Source of the DNA: Candidatus Nomurabacteria bacterium RIFCSPLOWO2_01_FULL_41_18
GTDB taxonomy: Bacteria > Patescibacteriota > Minisyncoccia > Phycocordibacterales > UBA9973
DNA: 64,000 nt
NCBI GenBank assembly: GCA_001785865.1
Contig: MFUZ01000006.1
Coordinates: 176,880-240,879 of the forward strand
Reading direction: 5' to 3'
The position numbers were made by a program, and so were the translations under genes. A model generated the notes under the pieces. The model was not told where the DNA came from and did not search any database. It saw only the letters and a program-made list of their open reading frames with translations. This document shows, piece after piece, positions 1 to 57,401 of this stretch. How positions within the stretch are numbered: the stretch's first letter is position 1; every line of letters starts with the position of its first letter.

Positions 1-586
1 CTTTCTTATATTCATTGATTTGTTTCTGAGCATGAGAAAAACTGCTAGTGTCTTCAATGTTGGCAAAGTGCGCATAGATCCCAGAAACTTTTATATTGTT
101 GCATTTTTTTATTTCTGAAAATAAACTCGGCAACTCACTCCATAAAAACCCTTCACGTCCAAGATACGCATCTATGGGAATATGAATCTCTTGTATTTTG
201 TTTAATTTTTTAGATACTTTATTTAATTCTTTTAATTGCCCTAATGAGAAAACAGTCAAAATGCAACCTAATTTTATTGCTCTAGATAAATCTGAATTTT
301 CCACGTATCCTAAAACCAAAGTTTTCTTTTTGCTTACTTTTTGTAAAAGTTCTAATTCTTCCACACTATTTAATTGAAAATAGTTTACATGTGGCTCCAA
401 AATTTTAGCAATTTCATTTTGCCCATGCCCGTAAGCGTTCCCCTTTATAGCCACAGAAAGTTTAGTCCCCCCGCCACGGCGGGCAGGCTTTTTTACTAAA
501 TTCCTAAACTGTTTGATGTTGCGAATCAAATTATTTTTAGAAAGTTCTATGTACGATAGAGGCAGCTTTTTTTTAATATCTTGCAT
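1..586 (-). CDS. alr: Alanine racemase, N-terminal ~195 aa (partial; continues beyond the window start)
   Basis: The reverse-strand ORF starts at ATG 586 and is not in the ORF track because it runs off the edge. Its translation MQDIKKKLPLSYIELSKNNLIRNIKQFRNLVKKPARRGGGTKLSVAIKGNAYGHG... contains the PLP-lysine motif (V/I)K(A/G)NAYGHG. It lies directly downstream of ddl. Confidence 0.7.
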   Translation of the reverse strand, partial: MQDIKKKLPLSYIELSKNNLIRNIKQFRNLVKKPARRGGGTKLSVAIKGNAYGHGQNEIAKILEPHVNYFQLNSVEELELLQKVSKKKTLVLGYVENSDLSRAIKLGCILTVFSLGQLKELNKVSKKLNKIQEIHIPIDAYLGREGFLWSELPSLFSEIKKCNNIKVSGIYAHFANIEDTSSFSHAQKQINEYKK

Positions 587-2963: not shown

Positions 2964-3707
2964 TTACAGTATAGCACTATTTAGATTTTTAGGGAAGTTA
3001 GTTAAATTCTTATAACCATTTTTTGTTATCAACACCATATCCTCTATTCTTACCCCACCGAAACCTTTCAGGTATATTCCCGGCTCTATAGTCATCACAC
3101 ACCCCACAGGAATAATGTCTTCACTCTTTGGTTTAAAATTTGGCCACTCGTGAATGACAGTGCCGACTCCATGCCCAAGTCCATGTTTAAAATTATTTTT
3201 AAATTTCTTCGCCAAAAAACTTCTAGCAACTCTATCTACTACTTTTGCTTTCTTTTCCCCCTTACTCAACTTCGCTAAAGCACGATTCTGGGCTTCGAGA
3301 ACTACTTGATAAACTTTTTTCTGCTTAGCAGTAGGTTTGCCCCAAAAATAAGTGCGAGTCATGTCTGAACAATAATGATTTATTGTGCATCCAAAATCAA
3401 ACATGATTATATCCGCCCCGCCACGGCGGGTAAACTTTTTTAATTTAGTTTTTCCCGGATTGTGGTGAATATTCGCAGTATTTTTACCAAAAGAAACTAT
3501 TGGTGGAAAGGACAACACATTTACGCCATGGCGTAAATGTGTTTTTTTAATAAAATTTGCAATTTCAAGCTCTGTCACTCCATCCCGTAATTTTTCTATA
3601 GTCTTTTGCAAAACCTTCTCGCTTATCCTCTGCGCTTTTACAATATTTGCCAACTCTTTTTTACTTTTTACCGCCCGTACTTCGTGAATGAGTTTTGTTT
3701 TTTTCAT
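2964..3707 (-). CDS. map: Methionine aminopeptidase type I
   Basis: Metal-ligand motifs DFGCTINHYCSDMTRT, HGLGHGVG, TIEPGIY and RIEDMVLIT. It contains an in-frame GC-rich insertion coding FTRRGG. Confidence 0.9.
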   Translation of the reverse strand: MKKTKLIHEVRAVKSKKELANIVKAQRISEKVLQKTIEKLRDGVTELEIANFIKKTHLRHGVNVLSFPPIVSFGKNTANIHHNPGKTKLKKFTRRGGADIIMFDFGCTINHYCSDMTRTYFWGKPTAKQKKVYQVVLEAQNRALAKLSKGEKKAKVVDRVARSFLAKKFKNNFKHGLGHGVGTVIHEWPNFKPKSEDIIPVGCVMTIEPGIYLKGFGGVRIEDMVLITKNGYKNLTNFPKNLNSAIL

Positions 3708-5473: not shown

Positions 5474-5526
5474 AACTTGATTATATCATACTTTTTAATT
5501 TAATAAATGTGCATAAAAAGAGAAAC

Positions 5527-5570
5527 CCGCCAAACGAACGGAGGGTTTCCTGTTCGGGCGGGTCGAATGA
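5527..5570 (-). terminator. GC-rich hairpin (CCCGCC...GGCGGG family) followed by a U-run on the minus strand
   Basis: aacccgccaaacgaacggagggtttcctgttcgggcggg. The minus-sense transcript ends ...hairpin-tttctcttttt. Confidence 0.5.
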
Positions 5571-5574
5571 ATTT

Positions 5575-6090
5575 TCAACTATGTGCTTTTTTTTGAAGCC
5601 TGTCAGCCTCGAAGCAATCTACCAACTGTTCAGCGCCACAGACAAGCACTCGAGCGTTCACTTGCGCAAGTTCCTCGTAAGGCCACCAGAAGCCCAGCCC
5701 ATCCTCTGAAGGACAAAAACAAATCTTTTTTTTGTCCTTTGAAACCTTGCTTGTAAATGCGACGAATCCCATTGACCAATCTCCGTAGCGTGGTACAACG
5801 TAATCAACGCCCCCAACAATTTGCGCCACTCCTGTTTTGGTTTTTGGTTGATGAAAGCTGCACAAGAAATTTGGGAAATAGATTCGCAGATGTCTGAGTG
5901 GGTTGTCGCCAAACTCGAAACATTTGTCAATATAACCCCAGATGTCTTCGAGAACTTGGCTCAGGGTATCGTCAAATTGTTTATCAACAGGATCGAAATC
6001 CTGAAAGGGATCGCCTGAGTAGTTAAGAACCTTGTTCCTTATCGGATACAAGTAATGGTCTTTTGCTTTTTTCATTTTTGGATTCTCCAA
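5575..6090 (-). CDS. Hypothetical protein, GC-rich relative to its neighbours (likely true start MKKAKDHY at about 6075)
   Basis: ORF with no recognisable motif. Its local GC is clearly higher than the flanking genes. It is driven by a consensus TTGACT-17-TATACT promoter. Confidence 0.45.
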   Translation of the reverse strand: MENPKMKKAKDHYLYPIRNKVLNYSGDPFQDFDPVDKQFDDTLSQVLEDIWGYIDKCFEFGDNPLRHLRIYFPNFLCSFHQPKTKTGVAQIVGGVDYVVPRYGDWSMGFVAFTSKVSKDKKKICFCPSEDGLGFWWPYEELAQVNARVLVCGAEQLVDCFEADRLQKKAHS

Positions 6091-7925: not shown

Positions 7926-7931
7926 AAAACA

Positions 7932-8660
7932 TTATATTTTCTCCGGTATTACCAAAGCCACAGATTCCATCAAGGTCTTAGAGGAACTTCCGGGCATACG
8001 CAAGAATTCACGGACTTTAAAAATGTGCTCAAAAAATCTAGTATCAAAGGGCATCTTTGACATGAACTTATTATGCAAAATAAGTTCTAGCGCATTTAGA
8101 AATTTCAAAGCTTTTGAGCGAGTGGAATCTAAGGCAATAATTTCATTTCCCTCTTCGTCCTCTTCTTCTGATTCAGCTAATAATTCTTTTATAAAATCAA
8201 TTCTTTTTTGCAAAGGCATATTTATAAACTTCTCTACTTCTTTTGTGTCTTCTCCTAATTCCGTAAGGCCTTGCCTTGGGGAGATTACATAAAATCTAGA
8301 AACTAAAGTTTTTAGAAGAGAATTTGTATCTGGCACGACCAGAAAGAAATGTGTATTTTCTATAGGCTCTTCAAACATTTTTAGCAAGACATTCTGCGCA
8401 TCTAAAGAAAAACTATTAACACAAACAACGAAAATTTTTTTAGTAGAAGAGAAACCTTTGTTCGTTGACATCGCACGCAAATCAAACGCCTCATCTATTT
8501 TTAGGTTATCAATTGTGATGTGACAAAAATCAGGATTACCCGAAGTTTTAATACCTAAATCTTCACAAAATCGTAAAATCTCCGGCACAATTTTCTCTCG
8601 TCCTCCTTCTATTAAGTAAGCATGGTGTAAATTATTTTTATCTAAGTGTTTTGAAATCAT
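7932..8660 (-). CDS. holB: DNA polymerase III delta-prime subunit-like (clamp-loader AAA+ fold, no Walker A)
   Basis: HAYLIEG, NVLLKMFEEP (the NALLKTLEEP box) and a SRF-type sensor motif. Confidence 0.65.
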   Translation of the reverse strand: MISKHLDKNNLHHAYLIEGGREKIVPEILRFCEDLGIKTSGNPDFCHITIDNLKIDEAFDLRAMSTNKGFSSTKKIFVVCVNSFSLDAQNVLLKMFEEPIENTHFFLVVPDTNSLLKTLVSRFYVISPRQGLTELGEDTKEVEKFINMPLQKRIDFIKELLAESEEEDEEGNEIIALDSTRSKALKFLNALELILHNKFMSKMPFDTRFFEHIFKVREFLRMPGSSSKTLMESVALVIPEKI

Positions 8661-11625: not shown

Positions 11626-12096
11626 TTACTTTCTATATTTTTTCGTCCTCCACTTGTCTGCAATCTTTACCCGTGTGAGCGAACGCTCGAGCTCGGCTTC
11701 AAAATGCTCAAAGTCCACTGCCCCTTTGTTTTCTATTTGCTTCTTCAATTCTTCCGAACGAGCTTTTGCTTGAGCAATTTTTTCGTCAGAAATTTCTTTT
11801 ATATGTTCAGCAAAATCTGCAAGTACAGCCACTTCTGTAACGCCTTCTCCCCCCCGCCCATCCAGGCGGGGCAAGCCAGTTTTAACTTCCACAAATCCGC
11901 CGACTACAGCCATCGGCACATATTCGCCATTCGTAACAGCGACAACATCTCCGGATTTTAAACCAACAACAAGCGGAACATGTTCCGGCAAAATAGTTAT
12001 CTCGCCTTCCGTAGTCGGCAAGGTAACTTGATCCACCATTTCTTCCAAAACAAGCCGTTCTGGGGTGACTATTTTTAGTTTTAATTGTTTTGACAT
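11626..12096 (-). CDS. atpC: F1 ATP synthase epsilon subunit, with a ~12-aa in-frame GC-rich insertion (TGLPRLDGRGGEG)
   Basis: The N-terminal beta-sandwich and C-terminal helix are typical of epsilon. The insertion is coded by ccccgcc-tggatg-ggcgggg at 11846-11877. Confidence 0.85.
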   Translation of the reverse strand: MSKQLKLKIVTPERLVLEEMVDQVTLPTTEGEITILPEHVPLVVGLKSGDVVAVTNGEYVPMAVVGGFVEVKTGLPRLDGRGGEGVTEVAVLADFAEHIKEISDEKIAQAKARSEELKKQIENKGAVDFEHFEAELERSLTRVKIADKWRTKKYRK

Positions 12097-12312: not shown

Positions 12313-14420
<2,108 letters not shown>

Positions 14421-15381: not shown

Positions 15382-15399
15382 ATAATTCTTTTAATTTCC

Positions 15400-15440
15400 C
15401 CGCCCGTACCGAACGGTACGTTCGGGCGGGTTTTGTTCCA
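15400..15440 (-). promoter_or_regulatory. Nested GC-rich palindrome CCCGCCCG-GTACCGAACGGTAC-...-CGGGCGGG between atpA and atpG
   Basis: It is not followed by a U-run, so a processing or stability element is more likely than a terminator. Confidence 0.4.
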
Positions 15441-17819: not shown

Positions 17820-18128
<309 letters not shown>

Positions 18129-19896: not shown

Positions 19897-19968
19897 TGAG
19901 TGTGGAAGGAATCGGACCTTCGACCTCTGTCTTATCAGGACAGCGTTCTACCACTGAACTACACACTC
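19897..19968 (-). tRNA. tRNA-Ile (anticodon GAU)
   Basis: rc = GAGTGTGTAGTTCAGTGGTAGAACGCTGTCCTGATAAGACAGAGGTCGAAGGTCCGATTCCTTCCACACTCA. It folds as a cloverleaf with anticodon loop CTGATAA. Confidence 0.85.
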
Positions 19969-20074
19969 AATAGAAAAAACTATAACAAAATAAACAGATT
20001 TCAGCAAACAATAATTTATCAAACATCACTCTACTAATATGCTGTTACTATGTACTAGTACATGAATGCATTTG

Positions 20075-20108
20075 AAAAAATCAAAAAACCGCCGGGAGGC
20101 GGCTTCTT
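20075..20108 (-). terminator. Rho-independent terminator of the RRM gene
   Basis: Minus-sense GCCGCCTCCCGGCGG followed by TTTTTTGATTTTTT. Confidence 0.7.
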
Positions 20109-20130
20109 GATTTTAAAATACAAATTTAAT

Positions 20131-26427: not shown

Positions 26428-28182
26428 TCAGACCTTATGCTTCGCGTCATGCTCGATAGCAATATGGTCTGTGATATATTTTTTTGTTCCTTCCTCTTCA
26501 GTAGGCACTTTTTTCCCTGGATTTAAAATGTTTAACGGATCGAAAATTTTCTTTATTTCCGCAAAGAGCCGTATTATCTCTTTTGGATACATTTTGTCGA
26601 GATATGGAGTGCGGATGATGCCATCATTGTGCTCCGCAGTAATTGAGCCATGGTATCTCCCCACCAAGTCATAGACTTTGTCTGAAAGCTCCATAATAAT
26701 CTTAGCGGTACCTGGACGCTTGAAATCCATCAGCGGAATGATATGGAAATTCCCGTCTCCGGCATGGCCGGCTAAGGTAAACATAAGATCGTATCCGCTT
26801 AATATCGCGTTTAACTCCGGAAGGAACTTCGGCAAAAATTCTGGGCGAACGATCACATCATCGATAAATGGAGCAGTACGCATACCTTTGACATGCTTCC
26901 GAAGGAGCGCAAAGCTCTCTCGGCGGATATCCCAATATTTATTCGCTTCAATTTCTGATTTAGTTATATGAACTTTCAACCCCGACGCATTAGGTTGGGA
27001 TCCCGACTTTATGTCGGGATTAAAAATTTTCAACCTTGATTTTAATACTTGGCATTTTTTATCAACTTCCTTTTCATCATTACCGGCAAACTCAGCCAGA
27101 ATAATTAATTTAGGAAAACCATCTTTAAGCATAAGAAGCGCTTCCGGCAAAAAACTCCACATGAATTTAAGCATTCCCAAAATTCCTTTGTTCTTGAGAA
27201 AATCCGGGAAAAATTTGACCGCTAGCTTCATAGTCTTGTCATCATATGTTTCGAGAGTTTCCGGGTTGAGGGTGAGGATCTCTTCCACCAAGCGCCCGAG
27301 CGGGCCTATGTCGTTCACAAAGATGGCCACAAGCTTGGAATATTTGTTCTCTGGGATCACCTTGAAAGTAATCTCTGTGACAATACCCAAAGTGCCCTGT
27401 GAACCGACTAATAATTTATTGAGATCAAATGCATACCCTTCGGCTCCGCTCAGGGTCTTTGGCTTTTGGCCTTCGACATTCCAAATATAATATCCAGCAG
27501 AATTCTTGCTTACTTTTGGTTTTGCGTGTTGTATTTCTGATTCATTATTTTGTATTAATGAAAATATATTTTTATAAACATTCCCCTCAAAATCGTTCTG
27601 AGTAATCTTTTTATTTAATTCTTGTTTATTGAGTGGCTTTACGACATATTCATTACCATCAGCAAAGACCACTTTGGCTTCTAAAATATAATTTTCAGTT
27701 TGACCGTATTTTAAAGTTCTCTCGCCAGCAGAATTGTTTCCAAACATGCCACCCATGGCATTTATACTTTTTGAAGCCGTGTAGCACGGCAAAATCATTC
27801 CTTTTTCTAAAGTTATTTTTTCAAAATCTCTATAAAACATCCCGGGTTGAACGGCAATTTCCCATATAGACTTTGTTTTCATGGGTAATGGCCCGCCAAT
27901 TAATTTATTCATGTACCGAGTGAAATCCAAAATAATAGATTCACCTATCGCTCCCCCCGACATATCGGTTCCGGCACACCTCGCTGTGATAGAAAGATCC
28001 GGATACTTTTGTTTATTTTCATTTACCCATTTAACTAAATTTTTCACATCTTCCGAATCTTTTGGAAAAAGCACAATTTTAGGCCGCACTTCAAGTAAGC
28101 TCGCATCATGCGAATATTTTAAAAGCGTTTCTGCATCATCCTCCACATCTCCCCTAAAAAATTTTTGTATTTCGGGTTTCAT
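26428..28182 (-). CDS. FAD-linked oxidoreductase (GlcD / D-lactate dehydrogenase family)
   Basis: PCMH-type FAD-binding N-terminal domain and a C-terminal FAD-oxidase domain (HAGDGNFH). Confidence 0.7.
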   Translation of the reverse strand: MKPEIQKFFRGDVEDDAETLLKYSHDASLLEVRPKIVLFPKDSEDVKNLVKWVNENKQKYPDLSITARCAGTDMSGGAIGESIILDFTRYMNKLIGGPLPMKTKSIWEIAVQPGMFYRDFEKITLEKGMILPCYTASKSINAMGGMFGNNSAGERTLKYGQTENYILEAKVVFADGNEYVVKPLNKQELNKKITQNDFEGNVYKNIFSLIQNNESEIQHAKPKVSKNSAGYYIWNVEGQKPKTLSGAEGYAFDLNKLLVGSQGTLGIVTEITFKVIPENKYSKLVAIFVNDIGPLGRLVEEILTLNPETLETYDDKTMKLAVKFFPDFLKNKGILGMLKFMWSFLPEALLMLKDGFPKLIILAEFAGNDEKEVDKKCQVLKSRLKIFNPDIKSGSQPNASGLKVHITKSEIEANKYWDIRRESFALLRKHVKGMRTAPFIDDVIVRPEFLPKFLPELNAILSGYDLMFTLAGHAGDGNFHIIPLMDFKRPGTAKIIMELSDKVYDLVGRYHGSITAEHNDGIIRTPYLDKMYPKEIIRLFAEIKKIFDPLNILNPGKKVPTEEEGTKKYITDHIAIEHDAKHKV

Positions 28183-37703: not shown

Positions 37704-38153
37704 TTAAAAAAGACTGTCCACGACTGCTTTTACCACCATCCCGTCTGCTTTGCCTTTTAGTTCTTTCATAAGAGCTGACATGAGCATTCCCTTCTTTGCG
37801 GCATCTGTGATTTTAAGTTCCTCTTTTTTAATACGAGCAATTTTTTCCACTTCACCCCTATCCATCATTTTTGGCAAATAAGTTTCAAGTATCGCCAGCT
37901 CGGATTCTTCTTCTTTTACTAAATCCTCTCTATTTCCCTTTTTAAATTGCTCTATTGAGTCTTTTCTTTGTTTTGCGAGTTTAGTTATAACAGAAATAGC
38001 TTCGGGGTCTGTGAGCATTTCTTGTGGTTTTCTATTTTTGGCGACAAGCTCGTTGGTAAATGCGGCAGACATGGCCCGGAAAGCTTTCAAGCGCAAAACG
38101 TCTTTTGCCATCATTGCTTCTTTTATTCCATTTTTAATTTGTTCGTGTAGCAT
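37704..38153 (-). CDS. GatB/YqeY domain protein
   Basis: YqeY-like helical repeat sequence. The probable start is MLHEQ. Confidence 0.65.
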   Translation of the reverse strand: MLHEQIKNGIKEAMMAKDVLRLKAFRAMSAAFTNELVAKNRKPQEMLTDPEAISVITKLAKQRKDSIEQFKKGNREDLVKEEESELAILETYLPKMMDRGEVEKIARIKKEELKITDAAKKGMLMSALMKELKGKADGMVVKAVVDSLF

Positions 38154-38191
38154 TGCTTGATTATAACAAAGAAATATTGTTTTAGAAAGCC

Positions 38192-38262
38192 TTGCACAGG
38201 CGGGTAGCCGAGCAGTTCGCCCTGCCAAGCTTGCAGGGATAGATTGCTTTATAAAATAATAT
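38192..38262 (+). repeat. Partial third copy of the ~134-bp repeat, with a covarying palindrome around AAGCTT
   Basis: gagcagttcgcc-ctgccaagcttgcaggg-atagattgcttt compared with gagcagttcgc-tggcaaagctttgccag-atagattgcttt in copies 1 and 2. Confidence 0.6.
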
Positions 38263-38284
38263 TTCTTTGTGGTAATATAGTAAG

Positions 38285-39001
38285 ATGGCTAAGCTAATAT
38301 TTTTTGATACGGAGACCACGGGCAATGAACAGAAGGACTCCCTATGCCAAATTGCTTATAAAAGTGGTGATGAAAGTTTTACTGGCCTTTACAAGCCTCC
38401 ACTAAAAATTCCACCCGAAGCTTCTGCTGTACACCATATAACCAATAAGATGGTCGCCGACAAACCATCTTTTGCTGAAAGTGGGGATTTGTCTAAAATT
38501 AAAAAACTTTTTGAAGATAAAGACATCGTCGTCGTGGCTCACAACGCGCCTTTTGATTTGATGATAGTCGAAAAAGAAGGAATCAAGCCGCAAAAATTTA
38601 TTTGCACTTTACGGGTTGCCAGACATTTAGACCCAGAGGGAAAAATAGAAAGATATAACTTACAATATTTGCGTTACTTACTCGAAATAGAAATAGATGC
38701 CACTGCTCATGACGCGCTTGGTGATGTGTTGGTCTTAGAAAAACTTTTTGAGCGATTGAAAAATAAATTAATTCAGAGCGAGAATGTAAGCGAAGATGAA
38801 GCGATAAATAAAATGATTGAAATCTCTTCGCACCCTTCACTTCTGCGTTCATTCAACTTTGGCAAACATACTGGTAAAAAAATAGAAGAAGTAGCGAAAG
38901 TAGATAGAGGCTATCTGGAATGGCTACTAGCCCAAAAACTCGAAAGCGATCAAATAGATGAGGATTGGATTTATACGTTGAAACATTATTTGGGGAAATA
39001 A
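38285..39001 (+). CDS. DnaQ-like 3'-5' exonuclease with a C-terminal DUF3820-like domain
   Basis: Exo I FFDTETTG, Exo II VVAHNAPFDL, and C-terminus KHTGKKIEEVAKVDRGYLEWLL. Confidence 0.75.
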   Translation: MAKLIFFDTETTGNEQKDSLCQIAYKSGDESFTGLYKPPLKIPPEASAVHHITNKMVADKPSFAESGDLSKIKKLFEDKDIVVVAHNAPFDLMIVEKEGIKPQKFICTLRVARHLDPEGKIERYNLQYLRYLLEIEIDATAHDALGDVLVLEKLFERLKNKLIQSENVSEDEAINKMIEISSHPSLLRSFNFGKHTGKKIEEVAKVDRGYLEWLLAQKLESDQIDEDWIYTLKHYLGK

Positions 39002-39004
39002 TCA

Positions 39005-39052
39005 CCACCCCCTACCCCCGCCTTAATCAAGGAGGGGGTTAGGGGGTGGTAA
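39005..39052 (+). terminator. G/C-rich hairpin CCACCCCCTACCCCC...GGGGGTTAGGGGGTGG
   Basis: Imperfect 15-bp stem immediately after the stop codon. Confidence 0.5.
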
Positions 39053-39074
39053 TTCTGAATTCGGAAGGAAAAAC

Positions 39075-39106
39075 TTGACAATAGCTGTGTGTGTGTGTGT
39101 TAAATT
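39075..39106 (+). promoter_or_regulatory. TTGACA promoter with a (TG)7 dinucleotide tract in the spacer (20-nt spacer to TAAATT)
   Basis: ttgaca-atagc-(tg)7t-taaatt. Losing one or two TG units would give 18 or 16 nt, close to the optimal 17-nt spacing (candidate slipped-strand switch). Confidence 0.4.
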
Positions 39107-39140
39107 TTCAATCGAAAAGAAAACCCAACGAAAGGCTGTT

Positions 39141-39350
39141 ATGCTAGTACAAATTGTAAGTGCCCCTACAGGTTTAAGTTTGGTGGGAATAATGCACGTA
39201 GGTGCAGTCCACACCGGCAAGGCAATCGTCTGTATTAATGAACAACAAGGTTTGTTGGAAATTCACAACGGAGACGACAACGACCTTAAGACGTTGCGAG
39301 AAAAGGCAAGAATCACCTTGCAACAAGTTCCCAGCGAAAAAAGAGTGTGA
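39141..39350 (+). CDS. Small hypothetical protein (69 aa)
   Basis: RBS aaagg is 6 nt upstream. It is followed by repeated terminator module A. Confidence 0.35.
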   Translation: MLVQIVSAPTGLSLVGIMHVGAVHTGKAIVCINEQQGLLEIHNGDDNDLKTLREKARITLQQVPSEKRV

Positions 39351-39371
39351 AAAAGTGTGCATTCTGCCGCT

Positions 39372-39420
39372 TGTGAGGAGCCGAGCTTCCACAGGCGGCT
39401 TCTTATTTTTATTTAAATAA
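39372..39420 (+). terminator. Repeated terminator module (copy A): GCCGCTTGT-loop-ACAGGCGGC plus TTCTTATTTTTATTT
   Basis: About 55 nt, almost identical to 40525-40580. Confidence 0.65.
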
Positions 39421-39447
39421 ATGTGGTAAAATAAATTGGAAACTTGA

Positions 39448-39481
39448 TTACCTAACTTTTCCGACCGGTAGAGTTAGGTAA
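39448..39481. repeat. 34-bp palindrome TTACCTAAC-N16-GTTAGGTAA (copy 1), overlapping the 3' end of the PaaX-like CDS
   Basis: Perfect 9-bp arms. It codes the last 9 residues (LPNSTGRKS) and the stop codon. Confidence 0.65.
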
Positions 39482-40087
39482 ATTGAAAGTTTTTCGCAAA
39501 TGCCAATCATTTTCTAATTTTTCTACTATCATATACAAAACATCTTTTCCTATCTTAAAATCCGCTTTTAATAAAGAAATCAGATCCTCGCAATCATACG
39601 GATATAGCCAGACACTATTTTGAAGCCGAATAAAGCCTATTTGAGAAAGTGTTTGCCTTAAAAGAAATCTGGTTTTACTCCTTGATTCTTTTATATCAAA
39701 AATAACTACCCTCCAACGACCATCCCATTTTTTTGGAATTTTTAATTTAAAATTATGCTTATCAAGAAAATCCAACTTACTTTCCCCTTTCCTTGTAATA
39801 CGGGCAACTTTTTTCCCATTTATTTCAATTATTTCAATAAAGCCTTTTTCTCTAAGACGTGTAAAGGAATCATTTATGGAGTACTTTAAATTCTTTTTTC
39901 TTTTAAAAGAACTCTCAAGTTTTTTAATAGCTGATAAAACATTGGGAGCAACCAGAGCAACTCCAAGCATGCCAGCGGTAAAAACTGTGTTTAAAATTAT
40001 TTTTTGAATATTTTTGCGTTTATCCTTCTTTTTGATTTCTTGTTCTAAATTTCCCATATATTGATAACTACGTAAATTATAATCCAC
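39452..40087 (-). CDS. PaaX-family transcriptional regulator-like protein
   Basis: N-terminal winged-helix region (RLREKGFIEI...ARITRKGESKL). C-terminal WDGRWRVVIFDIKESRSKTRFLLRQTLSQIGFIRLQNSVWLYP matches the PaaX_C pattern. Confidence 0.55.
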   Translation of the reverse strand: MDYNLRSYQYMGNLEQEIKKKDKRKNIQKIILNTVFTAGMLGVALVAPNVLSAIKKLESSFKRKKNLKYSINDSFTRLREKGFIEIIEINGKKVARITRKGESKLDFLDKHNFKLKIPKKWDGRWRVVIFDIKESRSKTRFLLRQTLSQIGFIRLQNSVWLYPYDCEDLISLLKADFKIGKDVLYMIVEKLENDWHLRKTFNLPNSTGRKS

Positions 40088-40590: not shown

Positions 40591-41640
40591 ATGCAAATTC
40601 TTTGGATAATATTAGCTTTAGTTGCAGGAGTAACAATTGCCTATTTTGCTTTTGGGCGTAGAAAAGAAGAAAAGAAAGATGATAGTTTGGGGTTAAATTT
40701 AATACTCACTCAAATAAACGAACTTTCCAGAACTGTAGACAATAAAATCGGAGAATCGCATAAACAAGTCAACGAAAGTTTGAAATTCCATTCTAGCGAA
40801 TCAAATAAAATTATTAGAGATGTTACAGAAAGATTGACCAGATTGGACGAGACAAATAAACAAGTCATTTCTTTTGCAGACCAATTGCAAAGTTTGGAAA
40901 ATATTTTAAAGAATCCGAAACAACGCGGAATTCTCGGTGAATATTATTTAGAAACAGTTTTAAAAAATGTCCTTCCTCCCGGTAGCTACCAAATGCAATA
41001 CGAATTTGAAGATAAAACTATTGTGGACGCTGTAGTTTTCGTAAAAGATAAAATTATTCCCATAGACTCAAAATTCTCTCTGGAAAATTATAATAAAATG
41101 GTGGAAGAAAGGGATGCCGTAGAAAAGAAAAGACTAGAAGCAATCTTTGTGGGAGACTTAAAAAATAGAATCACTGAAACTGCAAAATATATTCAGCCAA
41201 CAAAAGGCACTACTGATTTTGCTTTTATGTTTATCCCCCACGAAGCTATTTATTATGATTTGCTCACAAATAAAGTGGGCGCGTTGGCATCGGAAGAAAA
41301 TGAGAACTTGATCCAACGCGCGGCAGGAAAATATAAAGTCATCATCACCTCCCCCACTTCATTCCTCGCATATTTGCAAACTGTCTTGCAAGGATTGAAG
41401 GCACTCAAAATAGAAGAATCCGCGAAAGAAATAATTAAAAAAGTGGAAGATTTGGGAAAACATTTAAAATCTTACGACGAATATCATAATAAACTCGGGA
41501 ATGCGCTCGGCACTGTGGTGAACCATTACAATGCTTCCAATAAGGAATTGAAGAAAATAGACAAGGATGTGCTCCGGATTGCTGGATCATCGCCGGAATT
41601 GGCATTATTAGAAGTCGAAAAACCCCGCCCGAACGACTGA
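40591..41640 (+). CDS. rmuC: DNA recombination protein RmuC
   Basis: N-terminal TM helix, a long coiled coil, and a C-terminal RmuC nuclease-like domain. It ends in TGA. Confidence 0.8.
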   Translation: MQILWIILALVAGVTIAYFAFGRRKEEKKDDSLGLNLILTQINELSRTVDNKIGESHKQVNESLKFHSSESNKIIRDVTERLTRLDETNKQVISFADQLQSLENILKNPKQRGILGEYYLETVLKNVLPPGSYQMQYEFEDKTIVDAVVFVKDKIIPIDSKFSLENYNKMVEERDAVEKKRLEAIFVGDLKNRITETAKYIQPTKGTTDFAFMFIPHEAIYYDLLTNKVGALASEENENLIQRAAGKYKVIITSPTSFLAYLQTVLQGLKALKIEESAKEIIKKVEDLGKHLKSYDEYHNKLGNALGTVVNHYNASNKELKKIDKDVLRIAGSSPELALLEVEKPRPND

Positions 41641-41687
41641 TCGTTCAGTCGGGCAGGCGAAATTAGAAGAATAATTAATAAATCAAG

Positions 41688-56894: not shown

Positions 56895-57401
56895 AAAAAT
56901 CCAAAAAAACTATATATTGAAACAATTATTTTATTATTTTTTTGTGTTGTTATATTTTTTGTATATACAAAAGAAGAGAAAATCACCACCCCGTCTCAAG
57001 TAAAAACCGAAGCTCCCCTCCTTGATAAGGAGGGGGTTCCGGCTGGTAATTTAAAAAAGAACCACCTCGCCTCTGGCACTCCTCCTCAACAAGGAAGAGA
57101 GGAAACTATCCCAGAAAATACTCAATCTGCAACTGTCCTAGCTGGAGAAATGAACATAAATTTATCATTTCTCCCAAATACTATTTTCTATGATGCACTC
57201 ATACAAGCAAGAGATGCTAATAAAATAACATTTTCCGGTAAAAATTATCCTGGGCTTGGATTTTTTGTAACCGACATCGGCACCCTGCATGCAGGCAGTA
57301 GAAAATACTTGATTTATTACATTAATGGGAAGGAGGCGACCGTCGGCGTCTCGGCTTATACACTCAAAAAGGGCGACGTCATCGAGTGGAAATTGGAATA
57401 A
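56892..57401 (+). CDS. Secreted protein with a C-terminal DUF4430-like domain
   Basis: Signal-anchor MKNPKKLYIETIILLFFCVVIFFVY. C-terminus GFFVTDIGTLHAGSRKYLIYYINGKEATVGVSAYTLKKGDVIEWKL. Confidence 0.5.
   Translation: MKNPKKLYIETIILLFFCVVIFFVYTKEEKITTPSQVKTEAPLLDKEGVPAGNLKKNHLASGTPPQQGREETIPENTQSATVLAGEMNINLSFLPNTIFYDALIQARDANKITFSGKNYPGLGFFVTDIGTLHAGSRKYLIYYINGKEATVGVSAYTLKKGDVIEWKLE

Follow-up and report, generated by a model that had tools for sequence, protein, structure and literature searches.

The F1 ATP synthase genes of Candidatus Nomurabacteria bacterium RIFCSPLOWO2_01_FULL_41_18 lie within the 64-kb stretch of contig MFUZ01000006.1 that we analyzed (~40% G+C; the window, numbered from its first letter), and its nearest relatives are genomes assembled from metagenomes and carrying the labels Candidatus Nomurabacteria, Paceibacterota or Parcubacteria. 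Our subject is a short G/C-rich hairpin found in frame inside atpC, the gene for the epsilon subunit, at which the features are as follows.

11626-12096, minus strand: atpC, encoding the 156-residue F1 ATP synthase epsilon subunit, an open reading frame (ORF) with PF02823 homologues and matches to solved epsilon chains; the host gene of the insertion
11851-11874, minus strand: 24-nt insert, codons 75-82 (LPRLDGRG), gene strand TTGCCCCGCCTGGATGGGCGGGGG, delimited by an alignment gap with boundaries uncertain by ±2 nt because of a run of C
11852-11871, unstranded: hairpin core, a perfect 7-bp all-G/C stem with a 6-nt loop, from stem search, folding and shuffles

The atpD gene (12313-13674) lies directly upstream on the same strand. 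AtpC belongs with the ATP synthase epsilon subunits, since PF02823 (the N-terminal beta-sandwich) was found on all its homologues and it matches the solved epsilon chain 9itj_R with E=9e-18. On the plus strand, the hairpin consists of the stem CCCCGCC (11852-11858), the loop CATCCA (11859-11864) and the stem GGCGGGG (11865-11871), which on the gene strand reads CCCCGCC-TGGATG-GGCGGGG and is extended by an eighth T.G pair to CCCCGCCT-GGAT-GGGCGGGG. The gene-strand codons are AAA ACT GGC TTG CCC CGC CTG GAT GGG CGG GGG GGA GAA GGC (KTGLPRLDGRGGEG), within the peptide VKTGLPRLDGRGGEGVTEVAVLADFAEHIK. Both the sequence at 11846-11877 and the hairpin within atpC read back as given in a preliminary description of this DNA. 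This is the sole all-G/C stem of at least 7 bp (loop of 3-10) in the window, as compared with a mean of 0.035 expected from 200 first-order Markov shuffles, and a chance origin was ruled out by these shuffles together with the census of insertions presented below. The RNA fold of the 56-nt neighborhood reaches -21.1 kcal/mol, with a z of merely -1.6 because shuffles of such G/C-rich sequence fold too.

We compared atpC with 160 related loci (80 each from species-representative genomes and metagenomes), of which 157 had a readable loop. A short loop without the insert was present in 145 of the 157 (75/79 species-representative genomes and 70/78 metagenome contigs), with the pattern GGFxEVK, then five or six residues, then TEVAVLADF. 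An alignment gap falls at the insert in 89% of the 160 aligned loci, solved epsilon subunits are gapped by 10-13 residues at precisely that point, and the loop is short in 76 of the best 120 database proteins, the other 44 carrying some insertion at this place. Excising the 24 nt leaves K-TGGEGV-TEV, which is the basal six-residue loop. These findings confirm that the atpC insert is a derived, in-frame, palindromic insertion that other epsilon subunits lack, as had been proposed. Two details of that proposal needed correction. There are extra residues, but they number eight (24 nt) relative to close relatives instead of about 12, and reach ~13 only against distant epsilons such as 2qe7_H. Moreover, the insert does not lie between the beta-sandwich and the C-terminal helix; PDB alignment and a structure model place it within the sandwich, in the turn between its last two beta-strands. 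The low-confidence AlphaFold model (predicted local distance difference test score, pLDDT, of 48) served only for the order of strands and helices, backed by the PDB alignment, and tentatively puts strands at residues 58-73 and 86-94 and helices from residue 104, ~20 residues after the insert. Being in frame, free of stops and located in an essential gene, the insert is probably translated, and the element is presumably neutral or nearly so for ATP synthase. The RGG tripeptide that had been pointed out is indeed encoded, but it is merely GGCGGGG read in that frame.

The DNA of representative insert-bearing atpC loci was then fetched. The epsilon-loop inserts among the 44 proteins mentioned above comprise at least eight to roughly ten unrelated peptide types, and nearly all of them are stem-loops, of at least seven sequence families. 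Locus L161 has a homologue of the window insert, CTTG-CCCCGCCC-GGAT-GGGCGGGG-TGAA, between the basal codons KTN and EQGM. Locus L082 carries the exact 18-nt palindrome CCTGCCTGCGCAGGCAGG (family F1), the excision of which gives back AAT GGA AAA GAA (NGKE) with an ambiguity of 1-3 nt at most. The same loop holds CCTGCCCGCCGTGGAGGG, read LPAVEG, in L167; CCCGCCTGCGCGGGCAGG in L162; an 18-nt element nested within another in L163; two tandem 18-nt hairpins TCCCGAC-nnnn-GTCGGGA in L165 and a related doublet in L164; a 34-nt hairpin with a 15-bp stem (type C) in L087, L085, L168, L169 and L170; a 48-nt hairpin (type H) in L166; and CTTCCTT-caaaac-AAGGAGG in L146. A few inserts (HNVSFQNDDK, PFDSAQGK and those of L062 and L072) form a weak hairpin or none.

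A second hot region was noticed in the C-terminal helical part of epsilon, at KKQM/ENKE, equivalent to window residues ~119-124. The atpC genes of L015, L035, L046, L041, L115 and L159 have inserts there, and that of the window has none. They include a 36-nt element, CCTGCCCGCAATGCTACGCAAAGCGTTGCAGGCGGG (with PARNATQSVAGG), a nested double copy of it in L046, and other GC-rich inserts.

Comparison of the window ORFs in 1-26 kb with the 160 loci identified five window-specific insertions of at least three residues, three of which (in alr, map and atpC) are CCCGCC...GGCGGG hairpins. Together with hairpins elsewhere in the window, these are the following, grouped in families (F) by sequence.

470-487, minus strand: F2 insert in alr (PARRGG), CCTGCCCGCCGTGGCGGG, inserted between AAAAAG and GGG; missing in most orthologues
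3417-3434, minus strand: F2 insert in map (FTRRGG), TTTACCCGCCGTGGCGGG, inserted between AAAAAG and GG; missing in the other 47 of 50 aligned loci, including L050
4666-4686, minus strand: GC-rich insert (PAKDGAR) in an M50 peptidase gene, related to the hairpin GCCCCG-ccaagga-CGGGGC (PAKDGAS) of L026 but decayed
5526-5562, unstranded: F3-like intergenic hairpin CCCGCC..GGCGGG that resembles a terminator on the minus strand, after the ORF at 5575-6090
15399-15430, unstranded: F3 hairpin CCCGCCCGTACCGAACGGTACGTTCGGGCGGG (CCCGCCCG..CGGGCGGG), 32 nt, intergenic, between atpA and atpG
18073-18102, minus strand: F6 double hairpin TCCGCC-AAA-GGCGGA plus TCAGCC-TCA-GGCTGA, intergenic, just upstream of atpE
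26980-27019, minus strand: F5 double hairpin TCCCGAC-ATAAA-GTCGGGA plus TCCCAAC-CTAATGC-GTCGGGG, in frame in a 584-residue ORF (26428-28182)
41624-41655, unstranded: F3-like hairpin CCCCGCCCGAACGACTGATCGTTCAGTCGGGCAGG at the 3' end of the ORF at 40591-41640, called from the letters alone

The alr and map inserts, which the preliminary description had grouped with that of atpC, are true insertions of the same kind and have CCCGCCGTGGCGGGG in common. The alr insert is identical at 17 of 18 positions to the insert in the atpC loop of L167. In the F5 doublet, the second hairpin has the same loop, CTAATGC, as that of the L164 atpC doublet. The F3 hairpin has near-identical copies in frame in genes of L115, L049 and L088, these coding copies measuring 30 nt and three intergenic copies 32 nt. 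L018 and L058 have F6 in frame, read GGSASGG, and the family was recognized from the peptide alone at the atpC loop in P0013 and P0042. The atpC type itself (GCTTGCCCCGCC-loop-GGCGGGG-TGAA; CTTG-CCCCGCC-loop-GGCGGGG-TGAA) recurs with different loops in the atpB-atpE spacer of L015 and L106, in another L015 gene and in a 5'-half tRNA-like fragment in L005, L014 and L040, the copies in L015/L106 and L005 being intergenic. In F4, stems are constant and loops vary (TT, TAGGTCA, TGAGCTA, TATTTCA, TGGATG and CGGATG). We counted 7 contexts for F1, 22 for F5, 11 for F6 and 9 for F7, and 43 of 66 family contexts are within ORFs. The GC-rich string PARNATQSVAGG occurs in three different genes as well as at the second atpC hotspot. 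The view that such palindromes occupy both coding and intergenic DNA was therefore upheld by the copies of the F3 hairpin and of the atpC type, and so was the sharing of sequences across loci, although these belong not to one family but to at least seven distinct families plus further recurrent insert types. Overall, the preliminary interpretation is supported, with corrections, and errs, if at all, on the side of understatement.

These copies bear on the possibility that the added residues are adaptive for the protein (for instance as a flexible or RGG-type loop altering epsilon regulation) and that palindromy is incidental. The atpC insert is in frame and kept in at least two lineages (window and L161), and F1 coding copies are always in the frame LPAQAG (7/7), which indicates that peptide-level selection does act. 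However, the same DNA is found in alr, map, atpC, atpG, peptidases, spacers and a tRNA-like fragment, one element (F2) is read in different frames (PARRGG in alr and LPAVEG in the L167 atpC loop), and unrelated peptides fill the same epsilon loop, which in most relatives holds no insert at all. We find an adaptive origin scarcely credible.

Further copies were seen in passing. Across genomes, the atp operon has inserts at many points: atpG of L054 has an in-frame GC hairpin insert, CCCGCCTCGGCGGCGGG, after AAAAAAACAA (7929-7945), and L106 has PARNASSIADAGG at the AtpB N terminus (3407-3500). The map gene of L054 has an in-frame LPAQAG insert at a second map site (17844-17861). The tRNA-like fragment is a copy of a 5' tRNA half (GTGTAGTTCAG...GTAGAACGCTGT.CTGA) that stands just upstream of the real tRNA, after an RRM-protein gene (L005 2698-2745, L014 ~1860-1900, L040 ~1030-1080, L118 ~3180, L036 ~2290 and L162 ~3275), with a hairpin at the D-loop position that is of differing family by genome (F4, F5 or F6). 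At 19897-20130, the window has the tRNA without the half copy. Only four tRNAs reach the Rfam gathering score in the window, and no Rfam family matches any hairpin site.

To quantify such events, we called 2,416 ORFs in the window and 167 loci (2.0 Mb), compared them all against all, and retained insertions of at least four residues missing in at least 80% of at least eight orthologues. This census yielded 95 distinct lineage-specific in-frame insertions, the DNA of which has a mean of 61% G+C compared to a genomic 40%. Of the 95, 27 contain a perfect stem of at least 6 bp, 16 one of at least 7 bp and 9 one of at least 8 bp, whereas random coding segments of the same lengths gave 7.3, 2.3 and 0.8 (200 resamples, with maxima of 16, 7 and 4) and shuffled inserts 4.6, 1.1 and 0.2. 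Many of the events classed as non-hairpin are recognizably related GC-rich strings.

The insert in map shows what is kept when an insertion is shared. Together with the next five bases it amounts to 23 nt that are identical in the window, L007 and L106, whereas the 100-nt flanks are 71-82% identical and no nearer to each other than to those of insert-less genomes, for which reason recent recombination was rejected as the cause. The nucleotides, and not the peptide, are thus conserved where an insert is shared. This is the opposite of the outcome that the preliminary description had named as contradicting it, a peptide conserved throughout the lineage over variable nucleotides; the segment is missing in most relatives. 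An AtpC-only tree was too short to resolve and was replaced by a neighbor-joining tree of 12 proteins (3,014 columns, 200 bootstraps). In this tree, L050, L106 and L007 form a clade in 100% of bootstraps, although L050 is without the map insert, while an exclusive clade of the window, L106 and L007 was recovered in 0%. Similarly, the type C hairpin is present in L087, the sister of insert-less L018 (96.5% of bootstraps), and in the distant L085. Inserts must therefore have been either gained repeatedly or lost precisely.

Most likely, the atpC hairpin belongs as a single copy to a population of tiny, GC-rich palindromic repeat elements that originate at the DNA level and are filtered by selection in Nomurabacteria/Paceibacteria. 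These elements measure 18-48 nt and are often made of hairpin units of roughly 15-24 nt. The comparisons above show the family relations across loci, the DNA-level origin, the in-frame length filter and the survival in permissive loops. We envisage that the elements arise at the DNA level and not as selected peptides, and that, when a copy lands in a gene, selection would spare only lengths that are multiples of three in permissive surface turns, the survivors being translated into short loop extensions rich in Gly, Pro, Arg and Ala. The last beta-turn of epsilon would be such a permissive place, struck repeatedly by different families. Our best guess is that single-stranded hairpin DNA is copied and inserted, either with mobilization in trans by an enzyme (the Y1/HUH transposase of the lineage, for instance) or with existing copies as templates in replication template switching. 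After insertion, intramolecular template switching might keep the arms complementary, and arms would otherwise decay. We rank such single-stranded-hairpin copying above local template switching, regulatory selection and protein-level adaptation.

Quasi-palindrome correction, or short template switching, makes perfect hairpins from a local template without any element. Short template-switch mutations are among the subjects of PMC10710096. If the atpC hairpin had been formed in this manner, de novo by a fold-back or strand switch during replication followed by reverse-complement copying, no mobile family would be needed. The process itself is seen directly in the window, at a second feature of map.

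3514-3543, minus strand: perfect 30-nt palindrome, AACACATTTACGCC followed directly by ATGGCGTAAATGTGTT, in map, made by substitution and not by insertion, from orthologue comparison

Here, four substitutions (KTYISHG to KTHLRHG), all towards complementarity, perfect a conserved quasi-palindrome, the counterpart of which is imperfect in five orthologues (L007, L142, L006, L078 and L085), in a textbook quasi-palindrome correction. Two observations on the epsilon loop point the same way. The type C (L087) and type H (L166) hairpins exceed the net insertion by 6-10 nt, as if one arm had partly pre-existed. Besides, L087 and L168 have perfect or near-perfect type C stems that differ by two double compensatory swaps, as fits arm-to-arm copying, while 2-4 positions are unpaired in L085, L169 and L170; type C stems thus seem to have been re-perfected in some lineages and to be decaying in others. 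The recurrence of the F1 palindrome in unrelated GC-rich phage contigs, detailed below, also favors local formation. In contrast, neither arm of the window atpC insert has a counterpart in the basal loop, where one pre-existing arm would be expected. Different genomes share strings of 12-18 nt (GCTTGCCCCGCC; CCTGCCCGCCGTGG.GGG; the TCCCGAC doublet, its loop being CTAATGC) among unrelated genes and spacers. Template switching can maintain stems and may lengthen them, but it needs a local template and cannot account for identical GC-rich strings at unrelated loci. Nor would local copying produce inserts of 61% GC in genomes of 40%. We therefore regard local template switching as an unlikely source of the atpC hairpin.

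In map orthologues, the segment corresponding to window ~3500-3545 exists as two "alleles," ..AGCCATGGCGTAAATGTGTT.. (YISHGVNVL) and ..AAATACGGCGCGCCTATTTT.. (FIKYGAPIL), both quasi-palindromic. Their distribution (loci L106, L087, L113 and L018 versus L007, L085, L142, L006 and L078) departs from the 12-protein tree, with the sisters L106 and L007 differing.

G/C hairpins beside A/T runs resemble intrinsic terminators, and ordinary intergenic terminators share these stems, which raises the question of whether the hairpins are selected regulatory structures, that is, intrinsic terminators that stop antisense transcription, or signals for mRNA stability or pausing. The alr and map inserts and the 3514-3543 palindrome are the top antisense terminator-like sites (hairpin plus T-run) in 1-20 kb, the palindrome, followed by TTTTT on the plus strand, having the best score. 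AAAA precedes 17 of 27 hairpin inserts (63%) on the sense strand, compared to 20% of random coding windows. The 23 identical nucleotides at the map insert in three diverged genomes, the compensatory changes, and the presence of some family stems in ordinary terminators (e.g., L156 at 294) are also as expected of regulatory structures. However, intrinsic terminators have their T-run within 0-2 nt, whereas the atpC copy is without an adjacent T-run, the antisense one being 9 nt from the stem, and the scan calls no terminator there on either strand. Copies inside genes are on the non-terminating strand; those in alr and map fit the terminator pattern on the antisense strand only. Presence is sporadic even between sister genomes, and many copies are decaying. 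The A-tract link weakens against a proper control (59% of hairpin inserts versus 38-42% of other insertions), remaining only modest because permissive loops are Lys-rich. A regulatory origin is, in our judgment, very unlikely. Three related ideas were discarded: an A-tract target preference, strong against random coding windows and modest against other insertion sites, was given up as support; ordinary terminators at 465-488 and 3412-3431 were rejected, these sites being insertions inside the alr and map ORFs that are terminator-like only in antisense; and G.U versus A.C mismatches, examined for sense-strand RNA structure, offered too few interior mismatches for any conclusion.

Several observations weigh against a population of propagating elements. 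Target-site duplications or defined ends could not be established at the inserts examined, with the consequence that the term mobile element is based on distribution alone. This distribution was seen among diverged genomes and not near-identical strains, and was set against a neighbor-joining tree of 12 proteins. Insertion points in the atpC loop are spread over up to 6 nt (two codons), which makes it a hot region and no single recombination site, and such scattered points, together with hairpins longer than the net insertion, are easier to reconcile with templated synthesis on the spot than with simple pasting. F1 is a low-complexity palindrome, (CCTG)2C.G(CAGG)2, and CCTGCCTGCGCAGGCAGG is also found in 25 IMG/VR viral contigs (L171-L195), most of them of 58-67% G+C and unrelated to the Candidate Phyla Radiation (CPR), suggesting that some of the families may be convergent. 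In those contigs, F1 often belongs to longer hairpins, and in the low-GC contigs L185 and L188 it is in frame (LPAQAG) directly after AAAAAG, like the window alr and map sites. The F4 pattern had zero matches in the viral contig scan.

The transposase is a further point of difficulty. Y1/HUH enzymes (PF01797, IS200-like) have 3,720 homologues in the lineage, the best 120 at 73-83% identity, and abound in Nomurabacteria, Paceibacterota, Zambryskibacteria and Staskawiczbacteria. The only Y1 gene that we saw, at 5930-6720 in L167, lies 1.1 kb from atpC. It resembles a normal IS200-like insertion: the site is empty in L050 and L076, and the gene has a hairpin AAGCAAGAAC(C/G)GTTCTTGCTT on both sides and a duplicated TTAATTTATGTTTCAARCAAGT. 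Its flanking hairpin is AT-richer than the GC elements and unrelated to them, and no Y1 transposase is encoded in the window; in the DNA analyzed, no enzyme could be linked to the elements.

A bolder proposal, for which we would put the chances at somewhat below even, is that Paceibacteria/Nomurabacteria hold an undescribed class of ultra-short hairpin elements (~18-nt modules), possibly the smallest known self-propagating DNA units, which insert repeatedly and with no detectable footprint into the same protein loops, spacers and tRNA-like sequence, are copied via a single-stranded hairpin by a Y1/HUH transposase or from terminator hairpins, and form a main source of protein loop-length variation in these minimal genomes.

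We next compared these elements with known repeats. Rickettsia palindromic elements (RPEs) are repeated palindromes inserted in frame in housekeeping genes and in spacers, and translated (reviewed in PMC10969869). The elements described here likewise form in-frame palindromic families in unrelated protein genes and spacers, in the small, AT-leaning genome of a host-dependent bacterium. Unlike RPEs, which are of ~100-150 bp with a conserved peptide module per family, their units are of 18-48 nt, 3-8 times shorter, and are read in more than one frame; they are also simple stem-loops of high GC content in which the loop varies, frequently arranged in tandem or nested, with many families per protein loop. 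Yeast mitochondrial GC clusters (e.g., GC42) are GC-rich hairpins in AT-richer DNA, sporadic and merging, with conserved stems and variable loops (PMC4478555). Other organellar hairpin elements include sponge RHEs (PMC2800124) and the Allomyces double-hairpin elements (as referenced in PMC4478555). The present hairpins resemble the yeast clusters in being GC-rich (61% versus 40%), sporadic, and merged or nested, with stems more conserved than loops. They differ from the organellar elements, which are mostly intergenic, of ~30-60 bp and with an AG target dinucleotide, by their many intragenic in-frame copies and by their place on a bacterial chromosome. No AG target duplication of the yeast type was found at the alr and map inserts, which follow AAAAAG, and other sites differ. 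By analogy, the elements appear to work like RPEs and yeast GC clusters while being members of neither.

Other classes fit less well. Repetitive extragenic palindromes (REP/REPIN, mobilized by RAYT transposases) are also short, imperfect palindromes with many copies, often paired, and Y1 transposases are widespread in this lineage. Yet REPs are extragenic by definition, whereas most of the contexts counted above are inside ORFs, and they start with a 5' GTAG-type tetranucleotide, whereas the leaders here are CCTG, CTTG and TTTA. Miniature inverted-repeat transposable elements measure 50-500 bp, with terminal inverted repeats and target-site duplications, while here the whole element is one stem-loop. 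Quasi-palindrome correction differs in that identical GC-rich strings are found here at unrelated loci. The SPRITE of Streptococcus pneumoniae, a terminator-like repeat, is a comparable class. Literature searches on hairpin or palindromic insertions in CPR/Parcubacteria genes, or on Patescibacteria and RAYT, returned nothing relevant, which is weak evidence of novelty given their incomplete coverage.

If the elements truly propagate, the lower size limit of repeated "selfish" DNA would fall to a single 18-nt stem-loop, and tiny CPR genomes with little non-coding DNA would still host invasive repeats, parked in protein loops. They would account for many puzzling short GC-rich indels in CPR proteins. 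The inserts would mark permissive loops in essential proteins (epsilon, methionine aminopeptidase and alanine racemase) and might serve as strain-level markers, and caution is warranted not to take them for functional motifs such as "RGG." The co-occurrence of pasted hairpins and quasi-palindrome correction in one gene may offer a natural system to study how palindromes are made and tolerated.

The window and its relatives showed some other features. Between atpD and atpG, a 241-residue ORF (13695-14420, minus strand) with an HExxH motif and a weak Peptidase_M78/IrrE-like match (E=0.006) is missing from all 160 related loci, and L167 has two different extra genes, one of them Bro-N, between atpA and atpG. 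The atp operon seems tolerant not only of hairpins but also of inserted genes. The cumulative GC skew has its minimum at ~38000-40000, where gene orientation shifts from almost all minus (1-38 kb) to mostly plus, which is consistent with a replication origin or terminus nearby. Finally, hairpins that pair CCCCTCCTT or CTCCTCCT with AAGGAGGGG or AGGAGGAG are present in the window (39000-39054 and 57015-57035) and in L167 (4273-4294 and 4342-4362, between atpD and atpC); they sequester a Shine-Dalgarno-like AGGAGG in the stem and may represent a distinct class of regulatory or repeated hairpin.

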